From contig JAIQFR010000009.1 of assembly GCA_020073205.1 (NCBI GenBank), forward strand, positions 17,071 to 81,070: a stretch of 64,000 bases of DNA, given 5' to 3'. The position numbers and the translations under genes were made by a program. Positions 26,343-37,563 of this stretch are shown here, piece by piece. Position 1 is the stretch's first letter; each line of letters starts with the position of its first letter. The notes beneath the pieces are model-generated. The model was given only the letters and a program-made list of their open reading frames with translations, was not told the DNA's origin and did no database searches. This DNA comes from Terriglobia bacterium (lineage in GTDB: Bacteria; Acidobacteriota; Polarisedimenticolia; Polarisedimenticolales; JAIQFR01).

Positions 26343-26369
26343 AAAAAAAACCCGTCAGCGCACGCGGGT
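26343..26369 (-). terminator. Weak hairpin plus U8 tract at the 3' end of the HTH gene
   Basis: On the minus strand, ACCCG-N10-CGGGT is followed by TTTTTTTT (plus-strand A8 at 26343-26350). An 8-nt homopolymer is striking in this GC-rich DNA, but the stem is only 5 bp. Confidence 0.3.
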
Positions 26370-26735
26370 CGCGCGGATGATCGCTTCCATGTGGTCCAGG
26401 TAACGCTCGAGCGCCCTTCGACCGCTCGCCGTGAGCCGGTAGTGGGTCCGCGGGAGCCTTCCCTCGAATCGCTTCGTGCACGCGATGTAGCCGGCCTCCT
26501 CCAGCCTCCGGGCGTGGACGCTCAGGTTGCCGTCGGTGGTCTTGAGCAGCGCCTTCAGCTCCACGAACGTCAGCGCGTCGTTCACCGCCAGGGCGCTGAC
26601 GATCCCGAGGCGCAGCCGCTCGTGGATCAGCCGGTCGAGCGCCGCGGCCTTCCCCGGCGGCTCCGTCGCCGCGCCGCGCGAGGCCGGGCGGCCGGTGATC
26701 TCCTGCGCCCGCGAGGCGGACCTCGTCCTACCCAC
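26355..26735 (-). CDS. Winged-helix transcriptional regulator (HTH_34 / ArsR-like)
   Basis: [74 protein letters not shown]. Confidence 0.8.
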
Positions 26736-27342
26736 CGTGCTCCCTCCAGATCAGGAGGCCGAACAGGAGGTGCAGGCCTCCGAAGCCCGCGGCCATCGCC
26801 GGGCCGCCCCACGACGCGGGGCCGAGCAGGGCGCCCGCTCCCGCCAGCATGAACCCGAGTCCCATCACCGGCACCACCCGGACCGAGAACGCGCCGCCGG
26901 TCACCATCCCGGTCCCGTACAGGAGGAGCCAGGTGCCCGGCAGGAGGTCCGGTCGACCCGCCCGGTACAGCGCCGCCGTGAGAAACGCCCCTGCCAGGAG
27001 CGGCGGGGCGAACGCCAGCGCCGCCTTGCGTCCGGGCGCAGTGAAGAGCGCGACCCCCGCCGCGCGCGCCTTGAGCGCGGCCGTGGCCACACCGATGGCG
27101 AGGGCGGTGATCGCCTCGGCCAGCCAGGTGACGATCCACCCGAGGACGCTCCCCCGCGTCGAGGCGAGCCACGCGGCCGCGAGCGCGGTCAGTCCGATCA
27201 GGACGATCCCCCGCCCCGGCACCGCGGTGAACCGCGAGGCCCCCTCCATCGTGTCGCGGATGAAGTGCAGGTGGTCGAGCGCGCGCTCCTCCAGGGCCGG
27301 AGGGGCCCCGGCGCGCGTTCGAAGCGGTGCGGTGGACCTCAT
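26728..27342 (-). CDS. Hypothetical integral membrane protein, coupled to the HTH regulator
   Basis: 204 aa with about 6 TM segments. It overlaps the regulator gene by 8 nt. Confidence 0.6.
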   Translation of the reverse strand: MRSTAPLRTRAGAPPALEERALDHLHFIRDTMEGASRFTAVPGRGIVLIGLTALAAAWLASTRGSVLGWIVTWLAEAITALAIGVATAALKARAAGVALFTAPGRKAALAFAPPLLAGAFLTAALYRAGRPDLLPGTWLLLYGTGMVTGGAFSVRVVPVMGLGFMLAGAGALLGPASWGGPAMAAGFGGLHLLFGLLIWREHGG

Positions 27343-28747: not shown

Positions 28748-29536
28748 CTACAGCAGCTCCGCGCGGAGGACGGTGACCGCCGTGCCTCCGAGAATCACCC
28801 GGTCGCCGTTCAGGCGCACGTTGACCGTGCCGCCGCGGGCGGACGCCTGGTAGCCCACGAGCCGGGGACGGCCGAGCTTCGCGCCCCAGTACGGCCCGAG
28901 GCAGCAGTGGGAGGAGCCGGTGACCGGGTCCTCGTCGATGCCCGCGGCCGGGGCGAAGAACCTCGAAACGAAGTCCCGATCTGGCGACGACGAGCGGCTG
29001 GTCACGATCACCCCGCGCGTCGTGATCGCCCTGAGCCAGGTGAAGTCCGGCGAGACGAGGCGGACCGTCTCCTCCGATTCCACCTCGACCAAGAGGTCAA
29101 GCCGGTTCCTGCCGACGAACGTCGGGCGGACGCCGAGGGCGTGCTCGAGATCGGGCGACTCCTCCGACTCCGTCGCCGGCTCCGCGGGAAAGTCCATCTC
29201 GATCAGCGTCCCGCGCTTCTCGGCGGTCAGGAGCCCGCTCCGGGTGTGGAAGCGCGCCGCCGCGTCCGAGGGCAGCCGGCCCTCCTCCCAGAGGACGTGC
29301 GCGGAGGCCAGGGTCGCGTGCCCGCAGAGGTCCACCTCGACCGTCGGCGTGAACCAGCGCAGGTCGAAATCACCCCCCCGTTGGACCAGGAAGGCCGTCT
29401 CCGACAGGTTCATCTCCCGCGCCACGTCGCGCATGAAGGCGTCGGGCCGGGGCTCGGGGAGGAGGCAGACCGCGGCGGGATTCCCGGCGAACGGCCGGTC
29501 GGTGAAGGCGTCCACCTGGGTGATGCGCACGCTCAT
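28748..29536 (-). CDS. PhzF-family isomerase
   Basis: ITQVDAFTDRPFAGNPAAV..SETAFL..RWFTPTVEVDLCGHATLASAH..GSSHCCLGPYW. Confidence 0.85.
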   Translation of the reverse strand: MSVRITQVDAFTDRPFAGNPAAVCLLPEPRPDAFMRDVAREMNLSETAFLVQRGGDFDLRWFTPTVEVDLCGHATLASAHVLWEEGRLPSDAAARFHTRSGLLTAEKRGTLIEMDFPAEPATESEESPDLEHALGVRPTFVGRNRLDLLVEVESEETVRLVSPDFTWLRAITTRGVIVTSRSSSPDRDFVSRFFAPAAGIDEDPVTGSSHCCLGPYWGAKLGRPRLVGYQASARGGTVNVRLNGDRVILGGTAVTVLRAELL

Positions 29537-29636: not shown

Positions 29637-30725
29637 TCAGACGGGGGGCTTGAGCGCCTGGTAGACGACCTTGTCGTCGACGACCAAGCGGAACCGGTCC
29701 CCTTCCTTCTTCACCTCGGGCTGGGAGAACGGGTCGAACTCGAATCGCTTGATGATCCGCCCCCAGATCGCCTTCAGGGCGCGTGCGCCGATGCGACGGG
29801 ACAGCGCGGCTTCCTCGGCGACCTTGCGGGCGGCGTCGTCGGTCACCTCGAGCTCGATCTTGTAGTTCTTGAAGAAGTTCTTCGAGGCGTTGAAGACGCT
29901 GTCCGGCGGCTCGAGGAAGATGCGCTTGAGGAGCGGTCCGTTCAGGTCCTCGAGGATGATCGCGTTGTCGAACCGGGAGAGGAACTGCGGCACCATTCCG
30001 TAGTCGAACAGGTCCTCCTGCTTGAAGTGATGGCGCAGCGCGAAGACCTCCCGGATCTGGACCTCGCCGTTCTCGTACACGGTCTCCGTGGGGAGCTTCA
30101 CGCGGCTCGTGGCGGACGTGACGCGCCGGAACACTTGGTCGTACAGGGTCTCGAACGCGCCCGCGCAGAGGAACAGCATCTTCCCGGTATTCACGGTCAC
30201 CGAGGCGCGCTCGGGCACCTTGCCCTTGAAGATCGTCAGCTGGTGGAGCATCCGCTCCCCCTCGATCAGGGTGAGGAGGGCCTGCTGGATGTTGATGCCG
30301 GTGACGTACGGCTTCCCGCCCACGACGCTGGAGATCTTGTCGATCTCGTCGAGGCAGACGGTGGCGCGCTCCATGTAGCGGCCGATCTCCTCGCCGGAGG
30401 CCTCGTCGCCCAGGATCTGGCGCGCGCGCTCCTCGAGCCTGAAGAGGAGGCGCGAGGTGTCGATCACGCCCTCCTCGCTCGCCATCGTGTTCGCGTTCAG
30501 GATGACGACGACCCGGTACTCCGCGAACGCCGGCTGCGACTGGTACAGCCGCTCCATGGCCCGCATGACCGTGGTCTTGCCGGTGCCGGAATTCCCGATC
30601 AGCAGGAGGTTCCCGTACTTCTCCCCCTGCAGGTGCTTGAAGATCGCCACCGACACGAATCGAAGGGTCTCTTCCTGCCCGAGGACCGCCGTCTGGAGGT
30701 TCTGGTTGATCTCGACCGGCTGCAT
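29637..30725 (-). CDS. ClpX/HslU-clade AAA+ ATPase lacking the zinc-binding domain, GYVG pore loop and IGF loop
   Basis: Walker A is GNSGTGKT and Walker B is VCLDEIDKIS. ClpX-like blocks are QQALLTLIEGE, FLCAGAF, GMVPQFLSRFD and IGARALK. The translation contains no N-terminal C4 cluster, no GYVG and no IGF. Confidence 0.8.
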   Translation of the reverse strand: MQPVEINQNLQTAVLGQEETLRFVSVAIFKHLQGEKYGNLLLIGNSGTGKTTVMRAMERLYQSQPAFAEYRVVVILNANTMASEEGVIDTSRLLFRLEERARQILGDEASGEEIGRYMERATVCLDEIDKISSVVGGKPYVTGINIQQALLTLIEGERMLHQLTIFKGKVPERASVTVNTGKMLFLCAGAFETLYDQVFRRVTSATSRVKLPTETVYENGEVQIREVFALRHHFKQEDLFDYGMVPQFLSRFDNAIILEDLNGPLLKRIFLEPPDSVFNASKNFFKNYKIELEVTDDAARKVAEEAALSRRIGARALKAIWGRIIKRFEFDPFSQPEVKKEGDRFRLVVDDKVVYQALKPPV

Positions 30726-30796
30726 GGGCTTGGCTCTCCGCCGTCAGGTCGGACCGAGCCGGGCATTATAGACCGCGGGGACGGGCGCCGCCCGGA

Positions 30797-31753
30797 CTAC
30801 GCGACCGGACCGTCCTCCTGGAGCGGCGGTGAAACGGGCTCCGGTGACGGCGGCGGTGGGAACACCGACCAGTCGGCCCCGAACTGCGCGAGGAACTCCG
30901 GCCCGTAGGCGCGGTAGGTCACCGAGACCGGCAGGACGAGCACCGAGCCGACGTAGGGAATCGCCAGGAGGATGAAGCCGCAACAGAGCGTCGCGCAGCC
31001 CGCGACGACGATCGCCACCACGACCCCGAGCGTGAGCACGAAGAGGAACAACCCGTAAAGGAGGAACCGGATGAAGTGGCTCCCGAGGAGCGGGACGAAC
31101 CGCCCCCACGCCGCGGTCGCGGCCAGGTCGTCCCGGTACATCACCGGGACCACGAAGTTGCCGAGGAGCATCTCCACGAAGAGCACGGCGAGCACCAGGG
31201 CCACGATGACGGCGCCCAGTCCGACGAGCGCGAGGACGCGCGCCGCGAGCCAGCCGCCCCGGAACGCGCTGAGGACCACGAGCGCGAGCGGCAGCACGAG
31301 CAGGAGGGCCAGCACGATGCAGATCGCCGCGAAGACGAGCCGCCAGAGGAAGAGCGAGTCCCCGAGCCTCTGGAAGCGCTTCCAGGGCTCCACGATCGCC
31401 GCGCGGTCGTGGATGACGCCGTCGAGGAAGATGAATTTCGCCCGGGAGCTGATCCAGAGGAACAGCACGACCAGGGCGAGCACGATGCAGACCGCGAGGA
31501 CGATCACGACGACCCAGATCGGGTTGCGGAGGAGCTCCAAGACCCGGCCGGTCGCCTCCCCCAGGTCCTCCGATTCCCGCCGCATGATCGAGCGGCGGAG
31601 CACGGCGTTCCAACCGCCTCCACCCTCGCCGAGGGCGGACAGGAACGCCGCGAAGCCCAGTACGATCCAGGTCTCGACCTCGAACGGCCTGAAGAGGATC
31701 CGCTTCATCCGGTCCAGGGCCCGCTCGAGCGGGGCGATGAAGGCGATGTCCAT
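30797..31753 (-). CDS. Hypothetical polytopic membrane protein
   Basis: 318 aa with about 6 long hydrophobic segments and a Pro-rich C-terminal tail. I cannot confidently recognise a family. Confidence 0.6.
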   Translation of the reverse strand: MDIAFIAPLERALDRMKRILFRPFEVETWIVLGFAAFLSALGEGGGGWNAVLRRSIMRRESEDLGEATGRVLELLRNPIWVVVIVLAVCIVLALVVLFLWISSRAKFIFLDGVIHDRAAIVEPWKRFQRLGDSLFLWRLVFAAICIVLALLLVLPLALVVLSAFRGGWLAARVLALVGLGAVIVALVLAVLFVEMLLGNFVVPVMYRDDLAATAAWGRFVPLLGSHFIRFLLYGLFLFVLTLGVVVAIVVAGCATLCCGFILLAIPYVGSVLVLPVSVTYRAYGPEFLAQFGADWSVFPPPPSPEPVSPPLQEDGPVA

Positions 31754-31813
31754 GCTGCTCCGCCCTCCGCCGCCGATTCTGAGGACGCGGGAGGGGAAAA
31801 GTCAATCGGGCGA

Positions 31814-33793
31814 TCAGGGGATCCGGTAGATCAGGATCGAGTCTCCCGCGCGTCCGACGGGGGTCAGCGTGTCCCGGAGCCGGCTCATCCAGGTGGTCAG
31901 CAGGCCTGCCTCGATCTCCGTCCGTTGGCCAGGGGAGATCCCCCCCGACGCCAGAAGCCAGTCGGCGAGCGGCGGGAACCGCTCCCCGCGGGCGACCCGG
32001 CCGTCGCGCAGAGCGATCCAGTCCTCGATCCTGCGCTCGGCGACGAGGCCGCGGCGCAGCGCCTCCTGCGCCACCTCGTGGTCCGCGTCCAGGTACACGC
32101 CCTCGAGGAGCGTGACGCTCACCGCGAAAAGGTCGCCGCGCCCCGGCCGCACCGACGGCTCGGTCGGCTCGAAGTCGTGCACCCGGACCACCTTCCGATA
32201 CCGTATCCCGTAGGCCTTGGGATCGGCGGTGCCGAAGTAGGCGAGGTCCACGGACTCGTGGCCGTGCGCGTCCAGCCAGGCCTCGAGGGCCGGCAGGTCC
32301 TGGCCCCAGTCGATGTTCGAGTCCACGAGGTAGCGGAAGCCGCCCCGGGCCCCGCCCGCGAACGCGTTGAAGTAGGACAGGTAGCGGGGCGTCGCGAGGC
32401 CGAAGGAAAGGGCGCAGCCCGCGAGGAGCGTCGTCGCCGCCGCCCGCCGAACCCGGGTGCCCTCGAGCAAGCCTGCCGTCCCGCCCGCGGCGACGAACAG
32501 GAACGGGACCACGGGCAGGAGGTGGCGATACCCGATGTTCAGGTTGCCCGCCATGGACGCCGCCAAGTACAAGACCGGCGGGATCGCGAGGAGCCACCCG
32601 TCGACGGAGCGGCCCCGCGTCCTCGCGATCCCCGCCAGAAGCACCCAAAGAAGGAGGAGCACGAACGCTGGGGGCGTCTTGAGCAGGAACGCCTCCGGAA
32701 AGTAGTACCACCATCCGGTGACCGACTGCTCCCCGTTCAGGAACGCGAGCCTCGCGGAGGCTCCGCCCCGAGCGTACGCGAGGCCGAAGAGCCAGGCCTC
32801 GGGCAGCACCTCGGCGTCCTTGGCCCACGCGATCGCCGATGCCATCGGCCCGTGGACCTTGTCCAGCATCTCCCACTCGAGCCGGTAGCCGGGATCCGTC
32901 ACCGCCGAGTACCGGAAGCCGTACCCCGCCCACAGGACGACGTACGCCACCAGGAACGCGCCGGCGAGACCCGCCGCGGCGGCACGCCAGCGGCCGGCGG
33001 CGGGTCGGCCGCCGGGAGCGACCCCCGCGACGATCCACACGGCGGCCATCAGCACGAGGATCGGCGCCAGCAGCATCGCCGTGTACTTCGTCAGGAGAGC
33101 GGCCCCGAGGGACGCCCCGGTCGCCACGGCGGGCCTCCACCCCGGACGGCGGGTGAAGCGCAGGAAGCACCACGCGGTCGCCGCGAAGCCGAGCGCCGCG
33201 GGTAGATCGGTGGTCACGAGCCCGGCGTGCGCCAGCGTCGTCGGCGAGAGCGCGCCCAGGGCGAGCGCGACGAGCGCCCCATCCCTCCCCCACAGGTCCC
33301 GGGCCAGCGCGTACACCACGAGCAGCAGGAGCACTCCCGCCGCCAGCATCGCCATCCGGCCGGGCATGAGCACCCGCCTCGGGTCCTTCCTGACCGGATC
33401 GCCGATCCGCCCGTTGAGGAACTCGTACCCGAACTTCCACTGGTCGGCCCGGGATCGGCGCGGGTCGCCGGGCGGGACGTGGGCGCCCAGCCAGTTCGGG
33501 GAATCGTAGTCCGCCGATCCCCGACCGGAGATCCAGAGCGGCAGCGCGGCCCACATCTTCGCCAGCGGCGGATGCTCCGGGTTGTGGCGGAAATCCAGCC
33601 GGTCGAGATAGGTGAAGCCGGCGGGCAGGTGCGTCGTCTCGTCGAAGGTCGCGGACAGTCGGAGCGCCGACGCGGCGCCGCACGCGACGAACAGCGCGAC
33701 GAAGAGGACCACCGCGGACACGTGCGGAAGGCGTCGGATGGGCACGAGGGATTCTAGCCAGAAAGGTCGGAAAACACGACGGGCCGGGAACAT
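31814..33793 (-). CDS. GT39/GT83-type (PMT_2 / ArnT-like) glycosyltransferase
   Basis: FDETTHLPAGFTYL..NPEHPPLAKMWAALPLW, a polytopic N-terminal half and a large soluble C-terminal domain. Confidence 0.8.
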   Translation of the reverse strand: MFPARRVFRPFWLESLVPIRRLPHVSAVVLFVALFVACGAASALRLSATFDETTHLPAGFTYLDRLDFRHNPEHPPLAKMWAALPLWISGRGSADYDSPNWLGAHVPPGDPRRSRADQWKFGYEFLNGRIGDPVRKDPRRVLMPGRMAMLAAGVLLLLVVYALARDLWGRDGALVALALGALSPTTLAHAGLVTTDLPAALGFAATAWCFLRFTRRPGWRPAVATGASLGAALLTKYTAMLLAPILVLMAAVWIVAGVAPGGRPAAGRWRAAAAGLAGAFLVAYVVLWAGYGFRYSAVTDPGYRLEWEMLDKVHGPMASAIAWAKDAEVLPEAWLFGLAYARGGASARLAFLNGEQSVTGWWYYFPEAFLLKTPPAFVLLLLWVLLAGIARTRGRSVDGWLLAIPPVLYLAASMAGNLNIGYRHLLPVVPFLFVAAGGTAGLLEGTRVRRAAATTLLAGCALSFGLATPRYLSYFNAFAGGARGGFRYLVDSNIDWGQDLPALEAWLDAHGHESVDLAYFGTADPKAYGIRYRKVVRVHDFEPTEPSVRPGRGDLFAVSVTLLEGVYLDADHEVAQEALRRGLVAERRIEDWIALRDGRVARGERFPPLADWLLASGGISPGQRTEIEAGLLTTWMSRLRDTLTPVGRAGDSILIYRIP

Positions 33794-33852
33794 CGGGAAA
33801 ACCCGTCGCCCCCGGCCCCCCGTTGCGCTCTTTCTCTCGATCGCGTCGCGGC

Positions 33853-34893
33853 CTACTTGGGCTGGCCCTCGGCGGGAGGCGCCGCCGGCGGCGCGGCGGG
33901 TGCCGCGGGGGCGCCCTCGGCGGGAGCCAGCTCGACGACGGTCTTCAGGTCCTCGCGCGTCGAGATCGTCCCGGGCGTCCCTCCCGCGGCAGCGGGCGCG
34001 GGCGTTTCCGTGGTCATCCCGAACTGGAACGAGTTCTTCGTCACGATTCCCTTCGACTTGCTCAGGTAGAACTCGCCCGATCCCTTCGCGTCGCTCAGTT
34101 TGCCGTTGGACGGCGAGGGAGGAGGCGCAGCGGCGCCGGCAGCCGGTATCTCGACGGTCCTCGACGTGGCGTAGGTGAACTTGAAGCTGTCGTCCCCCTG
34201 GAACGGCTCAGAACCTGCGAGCGTGTAATCCGTTTCGAAGATGAGGGACCCTAGGACCGGATGGGGTTCCCGGACCTTGGCCTTCCGGTAAAGCGTCCCC
34301 GGCTTCACCGGCTTCTCGGGGAGCAGCCGGAACAGCCCTTCCATCTGGCACTCCAGCAGGTCTCCGAGGGAGTCCTGCGCGAACGGGAGGTAGGAAGCTC
34401 CGTTGGGGGCGGCCTTCATCTCGTCAAGGACCTTCTTGGTGAGCGTGTCGAAGCCGGTGACCGCCTGGAGCTTCCCCTTCTTGTTCAGCTTGAAGGTGAT
34501 GGACTCTCCGATGATCGCCGTGTACGGGATCGCAAGGGGACTCGCTTTCCGCTTCTCGTCGTCGGGATTCGCGGGATCGTACGTGAAGTCGACTTTCTGC
34601 GAAGGGATCTGGAGATGATCCCCGGCGGATTCGAATTTGGCTTGAACGGTCGCCGTGCCGTCCGCAGCGACGTCGGTCACCTCCTGGCGCCAGATGTAGA
34701 ACCGATTGTCGGTCGCCTCGCCCTGCTGGGTGCCGGCTACCTTCTGCAGCTTCTCGATCGTCATCTTGTACCGCGCCGTGTCTCCCTTGACCCACTTGTA
34801 CTCGGGTGCCACGGTCTCCTGAGCGAGCGCCAGCGCGGCGGAGATGGCGAGAAGCCCCGCCACGGCCGCGATTCCCAGGACGCGCTTCTGCAT
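33853..34893 (-). CDS. Hypothetical secreted protein with a Pro/Ala-rich C-terminal tail
   Basis: ATG at 34893 gives MQKRVLGIAAVAGLLAISAALALAQE, a Sec signal. The body is Lys-rich and the C-terminus is low-complexity (APAAPAAPPAAPPAEGQPK). The track ORF extends spuriously upstream to 35151. Confidence 0.7.
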   Translation of the reverse strand: MQKRVLGIAAVAGLLAISAALALAQETVAPEYKWVKGDTARYKMTIEKLQKVAGTQQGEATDNRFYIWRQEVTDVAADGTATVQAKFESAGDHLQIPSQKVDFTYDPANPDDEKRKASPLAIPYTAIIGESITFKLNKKGKLQAVTGFDTLTKKVLDEMKAAPNGASYLPFAQDSLGDLLECQMEGLFRLLPEKPVKPGTLYRKAKVREPHPVLGSLIFETDYTLAGSEPFQGDDSFKFTYATSRTVEIPAAGAAAPPPSPSNGKLSDAKGSGEFYLSKSKGIVTKNSFQFGMTTETPAPAAAGGTPGTISTREDLKTVVELAPAEGAPAAPAAPPAAPPAEGQPK

Positions 34894-35037
34894 GGATGGC
34901 CTCCTACCCCTCGCTGCGCCGCCAGGCCCCCGATCCCGAATACCGGTGCGAAGGACCTTGGAGCGTACAGCTCGGAATGTTACACCACGAGTCCCCCCCG
35001 CGCCGGGGATCGGGTGGACGTGGTAGGGTGTCCCGCC

Positions 35038-36282
35038 ATGGCGACCCGCCCGCCGGTGCACCGCGTCGTCTTCAGCGCGAGGATGCTCGCGCAGCTCCTG
35101 GCAGGGTTCTCGTCCGGCCTGCCGCTGCTGCTGACGGGATCCACCCTCCAAGCTTGGCTGAAGGACGAGCGGGTGGACCTCGGCGCGATCGGTCTGTTCG
35201 CGCTGGTCGGCTTGCCCTACACCCTGAAGTTCTTCTGGTCGCCCCTGCTCGACCGGTACGTTCCGCCCTTTCTCGGCCGGCGGCGCGGCTGGATGCTCCT
35301 GACTCAGCTCGCAGTCGCCGCGGCGATCGCCGGCGTCGGCCTCTCGAGCCCGGCCGTCTCCCCGTCCGGCGTGGCCGTTCTCGCCCTCGCTCTCACGTTC
35401 GCAAGCGCCAGCCAGGACATCGTGCTCGACGCCTACCGGCGCGAGGCGCTGGAGGAGGTCGAGCTGGGGTTCGGCACTTCGGTGTTCGTGAGCGGATACC
35501 GGCTGGCCATGCTGGTGTCGGGGGCGCTCGCGCTGGCCCTGGCGGACCGGGTCCCGTGGCGCAGCGTCTACTTCCTCATGGCGGGTCTGATGTCGGTGGG
35601 GGTCGTGACCGCCCTCCTCTGCCGCGAGCCCGTCATCGACGCCCCGCCTCCGCGCTCGCTTCGCGACGCCGTGGTGGAGCCGTTCGTCGATTTCTTCCGC
35701 CGGCGGAGGGCCTGGCTGATCCTGGCGTTCATCGTCCTCTACAAGGTCGGCGACCAGATGGCCTCGGCCATGACCACTCCCTTCGTCCTGGATCTCGGGT
35801 TCAGCAAGACCGAGCTGGCCGCGGTGGTGAAAGTCTTCGGGCTGGTATCCATGATCTGCGGGGGGCTGGTGGGTGGGATCGTCATGCTGAAGCTCGGGAT
35901 CCGCCGGTCGCTCTGGGCGTTCGGCATCCTCCAGGCGCTGTCGGTGCTGGCGTTCGCGGCCCTGGCGCAGGCCGGGAGGATCTACGGGATCCTCGCCGGC
36001 GCGGTCAGCCTGGAAAACTTCAGCTTCGGAATGGGGGCCGCCGCGTACTCCGCGTACATGGCCAGCCAGACGAACAAGCGCTTCACCGCGACGCAGTTCG
36101 CGCTGTTCAGCAGTTTGACCGGGATCCCCCGCGTGCTCGCCGCCGCCCCGACGGGATTCCTGGCGAAGGCGCTCGGCTGGACCGGCTTCTTCACGTTCTG
36201 CGCCGCGGCGGCGATCCCGGGGCTCGTTCTGCTCCTCTGGGTCGCGCCGTGGCGGGAGGCTTCGTCATCGCCCACCGACTGA
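35038..36282 (+). CDS. ampG: AmpG-family MFS muropeptide permease
   Basis: MLAQLLAGFSSGLPLLLTGSTLQAWLKDERVDLGAIGLFALVGLPYTLKFFWSPLLDRY..GRRRGWML. ATG at 35038 lies inside the longer track ORF. Confidence 0.85.
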   Translation: MATRPPVHRVVFSARMLAQLLAGFSSGLPLLLTGSTLQAWLKDERVDLGAIGLFALVGLPYTLKFFWSPLLDRYVPPFLGRRRGWMLLTQLAVAAAIAGVGLSSPAVSPSGVAVLALALTFASASQDIVLDAYRREALEEVELGFGTSVFVSGYRLAMLVSGALALALADRVPWRSVYFLMAGLMSVGVVTALLCREPVIDAPPPRSLRDAVVEPFVDFFRRRRAWLILAFIVLYKVGDQMASAMTTPFVLDLGFSKTELAAVVKVFGLVSMICGGLVGGIVMLKLGIRRSLWAFGILQALSVLAFAALAQAGRIYGILAGAVSLENFSFGMGAAAYSAYMASQTNKRFTATQFALFSSLTGIPRVLAAAPTGFLAKALGWTGFFTFCAAAAIPGLVLLLWVAPWREASSSPTD

Positions 36283-36291
36283 GCCCGAGCC

Positions 36292-37563
36292 TTGCCGCCG
36301 CCGGCGCCTCGCGCTAGATTCGCGGCGGAGCGGGGGTTCGCGTTGGACGTCTTCCTCGCCAGGCAGCCGATCTTCGATCGCGAGCAGAACGTGTTCGCCT
36401 ACGAGCTCCTGTTCCGGTCGGGCCTCGACAACGCCTGCCGGACCGACGACCTCGACGCCGCCGCGTCGAAGGTGATCTCGGACAGCGTGCACCTCCTCGG
36501 ACTCGAGACGATCACCGGCGGGAAGAAGGCGTTCGTGAACGTCACGCGGGAGGTGCTGATGAAGGAGCACGCCGCGCTCCTCCCGCCGGCCCACACCGTC
36601 GTGGAGCTCCTCGAGACCGTCGCCCCCGAGCCCGATGTCCTCGCGGCTTGCGGCCGGCTCAAGAGCGAGGGATACCTCCTCGCCCTCGACGACTTCGTGG
36701 ACCGGCCGGAATACGAGGCGCTCGTCGCGCTCGCCGACTTCGTCAAGGTGGACGTCCTGGCGACGGGGGGCGACGAGCGGGCGGCGATCGTCCGGCGGAT
36801 GGCCCCGCGAGGGATCAGGATGCTCGCGGAAAAGGTCGAGACCCGAGAGATGTTCGAAGAGGCCGTTCGAGCCGGCTACTCCCACTTCCAGGGGTACTTC
36901 TTCGCCCGCCCGGCGATTCTCGCCACCAAGGACATCCCCGGATACAAGCTCCACCTGTTCGGCATCCTGCAGGAGGTCAACCGGGTGGACCTGGATTTTC
37001 CACGGATCGAGCGGATCCTGAAACAGGACGCCGGGCTCTGCTACAAGTTCCTGCGGTACATCAACTCCGCCTGGTTCGGCTGGCGCCAGCGGATCGGCTC
37101 GATCAAGAGAGCGCTGGTGCTACTCGGGGAGAGCGAGGTCCGGCGCTGGGTCACGGTGATCGTCCTCACCGGGATGGCGGAGGACAAGCCGCACGAGCTC
37201 CTGGTCCACGCGGCGACGCGAGCGCGCTTCTGCGAGTTACTGGCTCCTCTGGCGGGGCTGGCGCGTCGATCCGAGGAGCTGTTTCTCGTCGGGATGCTCT
37301 CGCTCATCGACGCGGTGCTCGACCGGCCGCTCCGGTCCCTCCTCAAGGACCTGCCGATCTCGGCCGACTCGATCGCGGCGCTCCTCGGCGAGCCGAGCCC
37401 GATCGGGGCCGTGTTCTCCTGCGCGCTCGCCTACGAGCGGGGGGACTGGGAGGAATTCGCCGTTCGGGCCGAGGCGGCGGGCATCCCCGAGCTCCGCTGC
37501 CCGGACCTCTACCTCGAGGCGCTCCGGTGGGGAGGACGCTGCTTCGAGGTCGAGGCGGCGTGA
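36292..37563 (+). CDS. EAL-domain plus HDOD-domain signalling protein
   Basis: The N-terminal domain is EAL-like (FLARQPIFDREQNVFAYELLFRSG...ALDDF..DFVKVD). The C-terminal domain is HDOD-like (LLGESEVRRWVTVIVL..). The exact start is uncertain. Confidence 0.75.
   Translation: MPPPAPRARFAAERGFALDVFLARQPIFDREQNVFAYELLFRSGLDNACRTDDLDAAASKVISDSVHLLGLETITGGKKAFVNVTREVLMKEHAALLPPAHTVVELLETVAPEPDVLAACGRLKSEGYLLALDDFVDRPEYEALVALADFVKVDVLATGGDERAAIVRRMAPRGIRMLAEKVETREMFEEAVRAGYSHFQGYFFARPAILATKDIPGYKLHLFGILQEVNRVDLDFPRIERILKQDAGLCYKFLRYINSAWFGWRQRIGSIKRALVLLGESEVRRWVTVIVLTGMAEDKPHELLVHAATRARFCELLAPLAGLARRSEELFLVGMLSLIDAVLDRPLRSLLKDLPISADSIAALLGEPSPIGAVFSCALAYERGDWEEFAVRAEAAGIPELRCPDLYLEALRWGGRCFEVEAA

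Follow-up and report, generated by a model that had tools for sequence, protein, structure and literature searches.

ClpX is defined by five features: a C4 zinc-binding N-terminal domain, the GYVG pore-1 loop with the tyrosine that is its main translocation paddle, the RKH motif, the ClpP-docking IGF loop, and linkage to clpP. Its sister branch HslU (ClpY), a member of the same AAA+ clade, has no zinc-binding domain either, but it carries an I-domain insertion and GYVG and docks HslV by its C-terminal tail. Torsin-type AAA+ proteins are related to the Clp/Hsp100 proteins and have lost the aromatic pore-1 residue; these eukaryotic proteins of the endoplasmic reticulum lumen are thought to act by remodeling or partner-dependent switching and not by threading, have no arginine finger of their own, and need activator proteins. 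ClpX3 of Myxococcus xanthus (MXAN_2743) is an orphan ClpX encoded away from clpP, without the N-terminal Cys domain or RKH; it is reported to be 43.5% identical to Escherichia coli ClpX and is non-essential, and under heat stress mutants without it grow less well (PMC11423568). ClpX3 is the closest characterized analog of the protein analyzed here, a 362-aa AAA+ ATPase encoded within 64,000 nucleotides of a Terriglobia bacterium genome (contig JAIQFR010000009.1; this whole stretch is called the window), which is likewise isolated from clpP and has neither N-domain nor RKH. The protein belongs to an apparently undescribed, ClpX-derived family. We consider it likely that it is a free-standing, ClpP-independent ATPase with its own promoter and a role unrelated to its neighbors, and that the four genes among which it lies do not form a functional unit.

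An earlier note, made from the letters of the window alone, had described four same-strand genes with short spacers and had proposed that the AAA+ protein may be a membrane-associated remodeling or regulatory ATPase serving the adjacent glycosylation and envelope genes. All four open reading frames (ORFs) are present where that note placed them, on the minus strand, with spacers of 59, 60, and 71 nt, in a window of ~70% G+C:

33853..34893, minus strand: DUF6263 secreted protein, 346 aa, with signal peptide and Pro/Ala/Thr-rich tail (PF19777, 47.5 bits against a cutoff of 26.7; hydropathy)
31814..33793, minus strand: PMT_2/PMT-type GT-C glycosyltransferase, 659 aa (PMT_2, 48.7 bits against 26.1; PMT, 42.1 bits against 22.7)
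30797..31753, minus strand: DUF7544 polytopic membrane protein, 318 aa (PF24400, 114.3 bits against 27)
29637..30725, minus strand: ClpX-derived AAA+ ATPase, 362 aa, consisting of the AAA+ module only, with large and small subdomains (Pfam AAA_2, PF07724, 51.7 bits against 27)

A same-strand quartet with short spacers is by itself unremarkable.

A Predicted ClpX Fold with a Conserved ATPase Core

Motif statistics were taken from an alignment of 163 members of the AAA+ family with E. coli ClpX. The following elements of the window protein were located in it:

30573..30596, minus strand: Walker A, GNSGTGKT; K50 is invariant in 163 of 163 family members
30456..30476, minus strand: equivalent of the pore-1 loop, EEGVIDT, with no aromatic residue; aligns with ClpX AGYVGED
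30336..30353, minus strand: Walker B, LDEIDK; E127 is invariant in 163 of 163 family members
30297..30320, minus strand: pore-2 loop, GGKPYVTG, with a family-specific Tyr-Val pair; aligns with ClpX residues 198-204
30078..30107, minus strand: loop at the position of the ClpX IGF loop, aligned as SRVKLPTETV instead of GIGFGATV; precedes a predicted beta-hairpin (residues 213-226)
29973..29975, minus strand: arginine finger R251 in FLSRFD, present in 162 of 163 family members
29781..29783, minus strand: sensor-2 arginine R315 in GARALK, present in 162 of 163 family members

ClpX is the best match of the AAA+ protein in both sequence and fold, and the two have the same architecture of large and small AAA+ subdomains. 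The best relatives among solved structures were all ClpX (PDB phmmer, E ~2e-24). An AlphaFold2 monomer model built from 61 homologs reached a pLDDT of 88.8 and a pTM of 0.82, and its top 50 Foldseek matches in PDB were ClpX chains without exception (TM 0.66-0.73, 25-27% identity). Walker A and B, the QQALLxLIEG motif, the arginine finger, and the sensor-2 GAR motif are common to the AAA+ protein and ClpX, and the motifs quoted from the window, including GNSGTGKT, LDEIDK, and both conserved arginines, are all present on inspection of the sequence. The beta-hairpin that bears RKH in ClpX and the loop that bears IGF are kept as structural elements. HslU also aligns through its C-terminal small-domain region (NCBIfam hslU, E 7e-15, residues 244-331; PDB matches), but its I-domain insertion, GYVG, and C-terminal docking tail are all missing from the AAA+ protein. 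Together, alignment and model show what is predicted to be a ClpX fold with intact residues for ATP binding, hydrolysis, and inter-subunit contact.

Hydropathy analysis of the AAA+ protein found no hydrophobic segment, so nothing points to the membrane association that had been proposed for it.

Replacement of the Substrate and Docking Loops

Every element of substrate recognition and docking that defines ClpXP is lost or replaced in the AAA+ protein. No zinc-binding domain was found in the alignment to E. coli ClpX, where the start of the AAA+ protein lies 5 residues ahead of the point that matches ClpX residue 65, which bears out the absence of an N-terminal zinc-binding domain reported earlier. 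The position of ClpX GYVG is occupied by E-G-V/A/I-V/I-D across the family and by E-G-V-I-D in the window protein, and the column of ClpX Y153 holds a gap, R, Q, or E among the 163 members. Phe or Tyr occurs near the pore-1 equivalent in 17 divergent members of the 163, never in the arrangement G-Ar-hydrophobic-G. Relative to ClpX, there are insertions of ~8 and ~12 residues around the pore-1 region and a 3-residue deletion in the pore-2 loop. A proper alignment thus confirms that a canonical pore-1 loop is absent, but the description of the pore loops needs one correction: the pore-2 loop contains a Tyr-Val pair (KPYVTG). Y140 of this pair is found in 125 of 163 members and is replaced by Asn in 33, and G143 is present in all 163. 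The pore-2 loop is the lowest-confidence region of the structural model, with a mean pLDDT of 57 for residues 131-140.

The RKH position reads G-K-V in the window protein and is variable across the family. At the I-G-F position, the window protein has R-V-K; the Gly is absent family-wide and Lys or Arg stands instead, and the first hydrophobic residue of the position is not conserved in divergent members. The earlier claim that the IGF loop is missing therefore stands for the tripeptide only, as the loop is not deleted and a similar length is kept with the conserved SRVKLPTETV, in which position 211 is Leu in 153 of 163 members and F, I, M, or W in another 8, and P212 is found in 124. The losses of the zinc-binding domain, GYVG, RKH, and IGF hold across the 163 members and so are a trait of the family, not a peculiarity of this genome.

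A Family Separate from Canonical ClpX

The AAA+ protein fails all five of the features that define ClpX. It is only 25-30% identical to ClpX, and its scores lie far below the cutoffs of the NCBIfam ClpX equivalogs (NF003745, 142.3 bits against a cutoff of 359; TIGR00382, 113.9 bits against 370.75), with a match that spans the whole AAA+ module. HMMER searches of 1.84 billion 50%-identity cluster representatives left a score gap: full-length family members scored at least 229 bits and canonical ClpX proteins at most 126 bits. The pattern G-[YFW]-[VIL]-G was present in none of the 10 full-length family representatives compared with ~55 of 64 canonical ClpX representatives, and the CxxC...CxxC pattern of the N-domain was likewise found in 0 of those 10. 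ClpX-like representatives that lack the N-domain and keep GYVG (P0243, P0252, and P0253) are distinct from the AAA+ family.

More than 120 clusters in a 90%-clustered collection are at least 69% identical to the window AAA+ protein, nearly all of them 362-366 aa long and mostly from soil and sediment metagenomes. Species representatives of GTDB that encode the family belong to Thermoanaerobaculia, Holophagae, Vicinamibacteria, and unclassified Acidobacteriota, together with a few metagenome-assembled genomes (MAGs) of Desulfobacterota type, and some MAGs encode two family paralogs (L012 with L031; L018 with L038; L numbers denote loci in our comparison). The family is annotated as "ClpX" at JGI and as "AAA family ATPase" at NCBI, where a 100% identical MAG protein carries the latter name. 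Neither NCBIfam nor Pfam has a model specific for the family, and a literature search returned nothing specific on it, nor on ClpX paralogs without pore loops or IGF apart from M. xanthus ClpX3. The reported 43.5% identity of ClpX3 to E. coli ClpX, as against 25-30% for the AAA+ family, places ClpX3, compared here by its description, in a different lineage. We conclude that the AAA+ family is a real and distinct variant derived from ClpX, uncharacterized and apparently undescribed.

A paralogous subclade, 41-47% identical, is represented by L026, L028, L029, L031, L037, L038, L042, and L043. Its neighborhood is conserved, with GTP cyclohydrolase I and FabH upstream and a DedA/VTT membrane protein, sugar epimerases, UDP-glucose dehydrogenase, and MlaD downstream; the end of FabH lies 18-48 nt from the AAA+ gene in three of these loci. 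One 50%-identity cluster representative, P0121 (716 aa), has a C-terminal xylose-isomerase-like TIM barrel (PF01261) that may be a fusion or a merged gene call; as a single case of this kind it offers no hint of function.

Linkage to clpP

Of the 43 canonical clpX loci that came from the same scan as the family loci and served as the positive control, 38 have clpP as the gene directly before clpX. No clpP occurs within 10 kb of the AAA+ gene in any of 50 family locus records (46 non-redundant loci), there is neither a clpP nor a second clpX in the window, and no hslV was found near the AAA+ gene. Canonical ClpX occurs in Acidobacteria too (L080). Scores below the ClpX cutoffs, the missing GYVG and zinc-binding domain, and the count of 0 of 50 against 38 of 43 together uphold the view that the AAA+ protein is not a conventional ClpXP component.

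Gene Neighborhoods across the Family

Up to 10 kb on each side of the AAA+ gene was compared across the 46 non-redundant family loci, using profile hidden Markov models (HMMs) built from 118 DUF7544, 13 DUF6263, and 4 PMT sequences. DUF7544 was found near the AAA+ gene in 4 of 46 loci and directly adjoining it in 2 (the window and L095), intact PMT_2 in 4, and DUF6263 in 6. Any of DUF7544, DUF6263, or this PMT subfamily was near the AAA+ gene only in the window, L095, L094, L091, L010, and L009, a result with which tblastn agrees; in the other 40 loci, the profile HMMs found none of the three. The loci with any of the three neighbors come from one narrow acidobacterial lineage, in which the AAA+ proteins are 79-92.5% identical to that of the window. 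Gene orders in the five other loci of this lineage are given below, where ">" marks genes on the strand of the AAA+ gene and "<" genes on the opposite strand:

L095 (AAA+ 92.5% identical): DUF6263 > <M10 peptidase, <unknown; PMT_2 remnant > DUF7544 > AAA+
L094 (AAA+ 88%): DUF6263 > PMT_2 > DUF7544 > <S9 peptidase; GT2 > AAA+
L091 (AAA+ 85%): DUF6263 > PMT_2 > DUF7544 > <S9 peptidase; AAA+
L010 (AAA+ 80%): DUF6263 > <M10, <unknown; PMT_2 > AAA+ > 194-aa membrane protein > PhzF
L009 (AAA+ 79%): DUF6263 > <M10, <unknown, <S9; AAA+

DUF7544 is absent from L010, and both DUF7544 and PMT_2 are absent from L009. An opposite-strand S9 peptidase gene stands between DUF7544 and the AAA+ gene in L091 and L094, accompanied in L094 by a GT2 gene. 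In the closest relative, L095, the PMT_2 ortholog (L095:7466-8329) is a 287-aa ORF in which residues 13-94 of the window protein are joined to residues 442-659; this internal deletion removes the transmembrane catalytic core, and DUF7544 and the AAA+ gene are intact in the same genome. No product of the block evolves more slowly than the AAA+ protein: in L095, L094, and L091 it is 92.5, 88, and 85% identical to the window protein, compared with 81, 68, and 54% for DUF7544 and 66, 63, and 46% for DUF6263.

Outside this lineage the context changes altogether. The gene ahead of AAA+ orthologs at 70-76% identity is thioredoxin-like in L002, Fic in L004, and zinc-ribbon in L001, and when all flanking ORFs were clustered all against all, the commonest neighbor family was present in at most 9 of 43 loci. 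The AAA+ gene is under strong purifying selection and has no conserved neighbor. The co-occurrence of the AAA+ gene with DUF7544 and the glycosyltransferase, on which the proposed tie to the adjacent genes depended, is confined to 4 of 46 loci for DUF7544 and 4 of 46 for intact PMT_2, in a single lineage; across the 46 loci the clade lies scattered in unrelated neighborhoods, the outcome that the earlier note had itself named beforehand as refuting such a tie.

Three candidate partners that emerged from the flanking genes were set aside. UvrD, which precedes the AAA+ gene in 8 loci, and a protein of 670-820 aa without Pfam match, which comes after it in 5 Thermoanaerobaculia-type loci, were judged to be local synteny. 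A hydrophobic protein of 191-194 aa with no Pfam match begins 5-21 nt after the AAA+ gene, counted from stop to start (L001:11107-11682, L009:11109-11693, and L010:11111-11695); it was rejected as a conserved partner, being present in only 3 loci and absent from the window. Two tight junctions were seen in Thermoanaerobaculia-type loci: in L002 (L002:9468-11705), the start of the AAA+ gene overlaps the end of the thioredoxin-like AhpC/TSA gene by 4 nt and a flavoprotein gene follows, and in L004 (L004:8629-11089), the AAA+ gene lies 10 nt past the Fic gene, a junction unlike that of L002.

A Putative Promoter of the ATPase Gene

The spacers contain the following elements:

30765..30770, minus strand: perfect TATAAT -10 element in the DUF7544/AAA+ spacer, starting 45 nt upstream of the AAA+ ATG
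30734..30739, minus strand: GGAGAG, resembling a Shine-Dalgarno sequence and lying 8 nt before the AAA+ ATG (from the sequence)
31776..31805, minus strand: promoter-like TTGACT-18-CAGAAT in the PMT_2/DUF7544 spacer, a consensus match only (1 found, compared with 0.1 expected from shuffles)

Only three TATAAT hexamers occur in the window, counting both strands. The one before the AAA+ gene is kept at -36 to -47 in 7 of 7 loci examined, from the lineage with AAA+ proteins at least 75% identical, and the gene upstream of it is variously DUF7544, S9 peptidase, GT2, PMT_2, or zinc-ribbon. In an alignment of the upstream regions, TATAAT is the sole invariant block besides the start codon, and GGAGAG or GGAAAGG is present in most of the sequences. 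RNA folding of the four spacers gave no structure better than shuffled sequence (z -0.02 to +0.67). The AAA+ gene thus has a putative promoter element of its own, as judged from the conservation of its sequence. Separate promoters and terminators between the four genes had been suggested as a sign that they are not one unit: the conserved TATAAT ahead of the AAA+ gene was found, and terminators were not.

Interpretation and Alternatives

The explanation that we favor is that the four genes are neighbors in a fluid local-synteny block, confined to a single narrow lineage of acidobacteria, where the genes ahead of the AAA+ gene would have been gained, lost, or broken time and again. A conserved promoter of its own (TATAAT at -36 to -47) would drive the AAA+ gene, whose product would assemble as a soluble, cytoplasmic, ClpX-like homohexamer that hydrolyzes ATP and acts independently of ClpP. 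In such a hexamer, the conserved pore-2 KPYVTG loop may make the contact with a client, inside the axial channel or close to it, and the SRVKLPTETV loop, which is conserved too and sits in place of the ClpP-docking IGF loop, may dock a partner. The role of the protein, as a remodeling or regulatory ATPase, would then be of a housekeeping type and have nothing to do with the glycosyltransferase, DUF7544, or DUF6263. The scattered neighborhoods and the conserved -10 element of its own speak against a remodeling or regulatory role directed at the adjacent glycosylation and envelope genes.

Several observations weigh against this explanation. DUF6263 lies within 4-8 kb of the AAA+ gene in each of the six genomes from this lineage. 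No terminator-like hairpins were found in any of the spacers, so read-through from the upstream genes is possible in this genome. Fatty-acid or envelope genes are found close to the AAA+ gene in the paralogous subclade (FabH and DedA) and in the window lineage (KAS and UppS) alike, a vicinity that could hint at an envelope link. The GTDB scan took in 600 stretches, making the family counts lower bounds and the locus sample incomplete. Finally, we infer the hexamer, the client contact at pore-2, and the docking of a partner at the VKLPT loop from sequence and a structural model.

A bolder version of the favored explanation holds that the family, core to Acidobacteriota and found in some Desulfobacterota, is a branch of the ClpX lineage not described before, with both functional faces of the ring rewired: the aromatic-hydrophobic pair that grips substrates would have moved from pore-1 to pore-2, and the IGF loop would have become a new, near-invariant docking loop for a partner other than ClpP. 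We regard this full version as doubtful.

It is improbable, though somewhat less so than the remaining alternatives, that the AAA+ protein is still the unfoldase of a protease, threading substrates via the pore-2 Tyr-Val pair and docking ClpP or another self-compartmentalized peptidase via L211, with V-K-L standing in for I-G-F. The ClpX fold, the full set of intact ATPase residues, the kept length of the docking loop, the conservation of Leu or another hydrophobic residue (F, I, M, or W) at L211 in 153 and 8 further members of the 163, and the conservation of Y140-V141 in the main clade (125 of 163) are all in keeping with it. However, [LIV]-G-[FL] is absent family-wide, its Gly having given way to Lys or Arg and its first hydrophobic residue being unconserved in divergent members; the pore-1 Tyr that serves ClpX as its main translocation paddle is missing; 33 of 163 members have Asn in place of Y140; and a gene for a compartmental peptidase, whether clpP, hslV, or another, is nowhere a conserved neighbor.

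Very unlikely, in our estimation, is a non-translocating regulatory subunit that forms mixed rings with canonical ClpX or serves as an ATP-dependent switch or scaffold, broadly in the manner of Torsins. The window protein resembles Torsins in being Clp-related without an aromatic pore-1 residue and differs from them in keeping both arginine finger and sensor-2. No other parts of the protein are as ClpX-like or as conserved as its inter-subunit elements (arginine finger, sensor-2, and the EDLFxYGMxPQFLSRFD box), its substrate-contacting loops have diverged, and canonical ClpX is present in Acidobacteria as well, all of which could suit a subunit of this kind. Identity to ClpX is just 26-30%, however, which makes mixed rings unlikely, and with Walker B and the arginine finger intact the AAA+ protein is not a pseudo-ATPase.

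Least likely of all is an envelope or glycosylation module in which the AAA+ protein powers or regulates the membrane protein and the glycosyltransferase, at least in the narrow lineage: the shared strand, spacers of 59-71 nt without detected terminators, the adjoining DUF7544 gene in the window and L095, and the DUF6263-PMT_2-DUF7544 trio kept in the window, L091, and L094 speak for it, but the comparison of sequences largely refutes it, since the AAA+ gene has its own conserved -10 element, encodes no membrane segment, and is kept as the best-conserved gene where PMT_2 is broken (L095), DUF7544 is missing (L010 and L009), all three neighbors are absent (40 loci), or an opposite-strand gene intervenes (L091 and L094), and distant DUF7544 genes occur with no AAA+ gene nearby.

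Neighboring Proteins and Flanking Genes

The DUF6263 ORF starts from an ATG that opens a signal peptide, and the N-terminus is signal-peptide-like by hydropathy. Its C-terminal tail (window 33853-34020) is rich in Pro, Ala, and Thr (TETPAPAAAGGTPGT...APAAPAAPPAAPPA); the composition of the tail, but not its sequence, is kept in four orthologs. The tail could be a candidate target for O-glycosylation by the adjacent PMT-type enzyme. A functional relation among DUF6263, PMT_2, and DUF7544, for example through O-glycosylation of the tail, is a weak proposition, as it is suggested by three genomes and contradicted by L095, L010, and L009. Scans of metagenome contigs with DUF6263, as a single protein and as a 4-sequence alignment, gave no confirmed loci, so the DUF6263-PMT_2 link was examined in six genomes only.

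The glycosyltransferase has several hydrophobic stretches and a C-terminal region of ~200 aa without hydrophobic segments, and it had been labeled GT39. The Pfam PMT/PMT_2 match and the FDE at residues 50-52, directly after the first transmembrane segment, agree with that label, and the CAZy assignment (GT39 as against GT83 or others) stays at the Pfam level; searches by sequence returned no PDB structure matches for this protein. The DUF7544 protein has at least 4 long hydrophobic stretches by hydropathy. Distant DUF7544 genes (L092 and L093) lie in unrelated contexts, with no AAA+, PMT, or DUF6263 gene nearby. A literature search returned nothing specific on DUF7544 or DUF6263. A PADLOC scan of all four proteins produced weak, P-loop-level matches only and hence no tie to a defense system.

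Downstream of the AAA+ gene, and separated from it by 100 nt, is the first gene of a further same-strand series:

28748..29536, minus strand: PhzF-family gene (Pfam), part of the same lineage-restricted syntenic block, with PhzF, KAS, 204-aa protein, HTH_34, and UppS

The genes 3' of the AAA+ gene on its strand thus encode PhzF, a KAS-II-like synthase, a 204-aa protein, an HTH_34 regulator, and UppS. The genes for the HTH_34 regulator (126 aa) and the 204-aa membrane protein overlap by 8 nt, with UppS adjoining (window 26355-27342, minus strand); the pair is kept in L009, L091, and L095 and resembles a small conserved unit of regulator and membrane protein. On the other side of the block, genes for an AmpG-like MFS transporter and an EAL-HDOD protein (window 35020-37563, plus strand) are divergent from DUF6263, and their pairing is kept in L094 and L010.

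Significance

A link between the AAA+ protein and a glycosylation module, if true, would be a new kind of envelope machinery; with the comparative evidence against it, that part of the proposal carries no weight, and the four-gene cluster as such is ordinary. What remains is a widespread, strongly conserved, and unannotated family of ClpX-derived ATPases with a competent ATPase core and two conserved loops specific to the family, which in its own right is of moderate interest. Identification of the partner and client of its members would reveal how a protease-coupled unfoldase gets repurposed and would put right the routine "ClpX" label at JGI.

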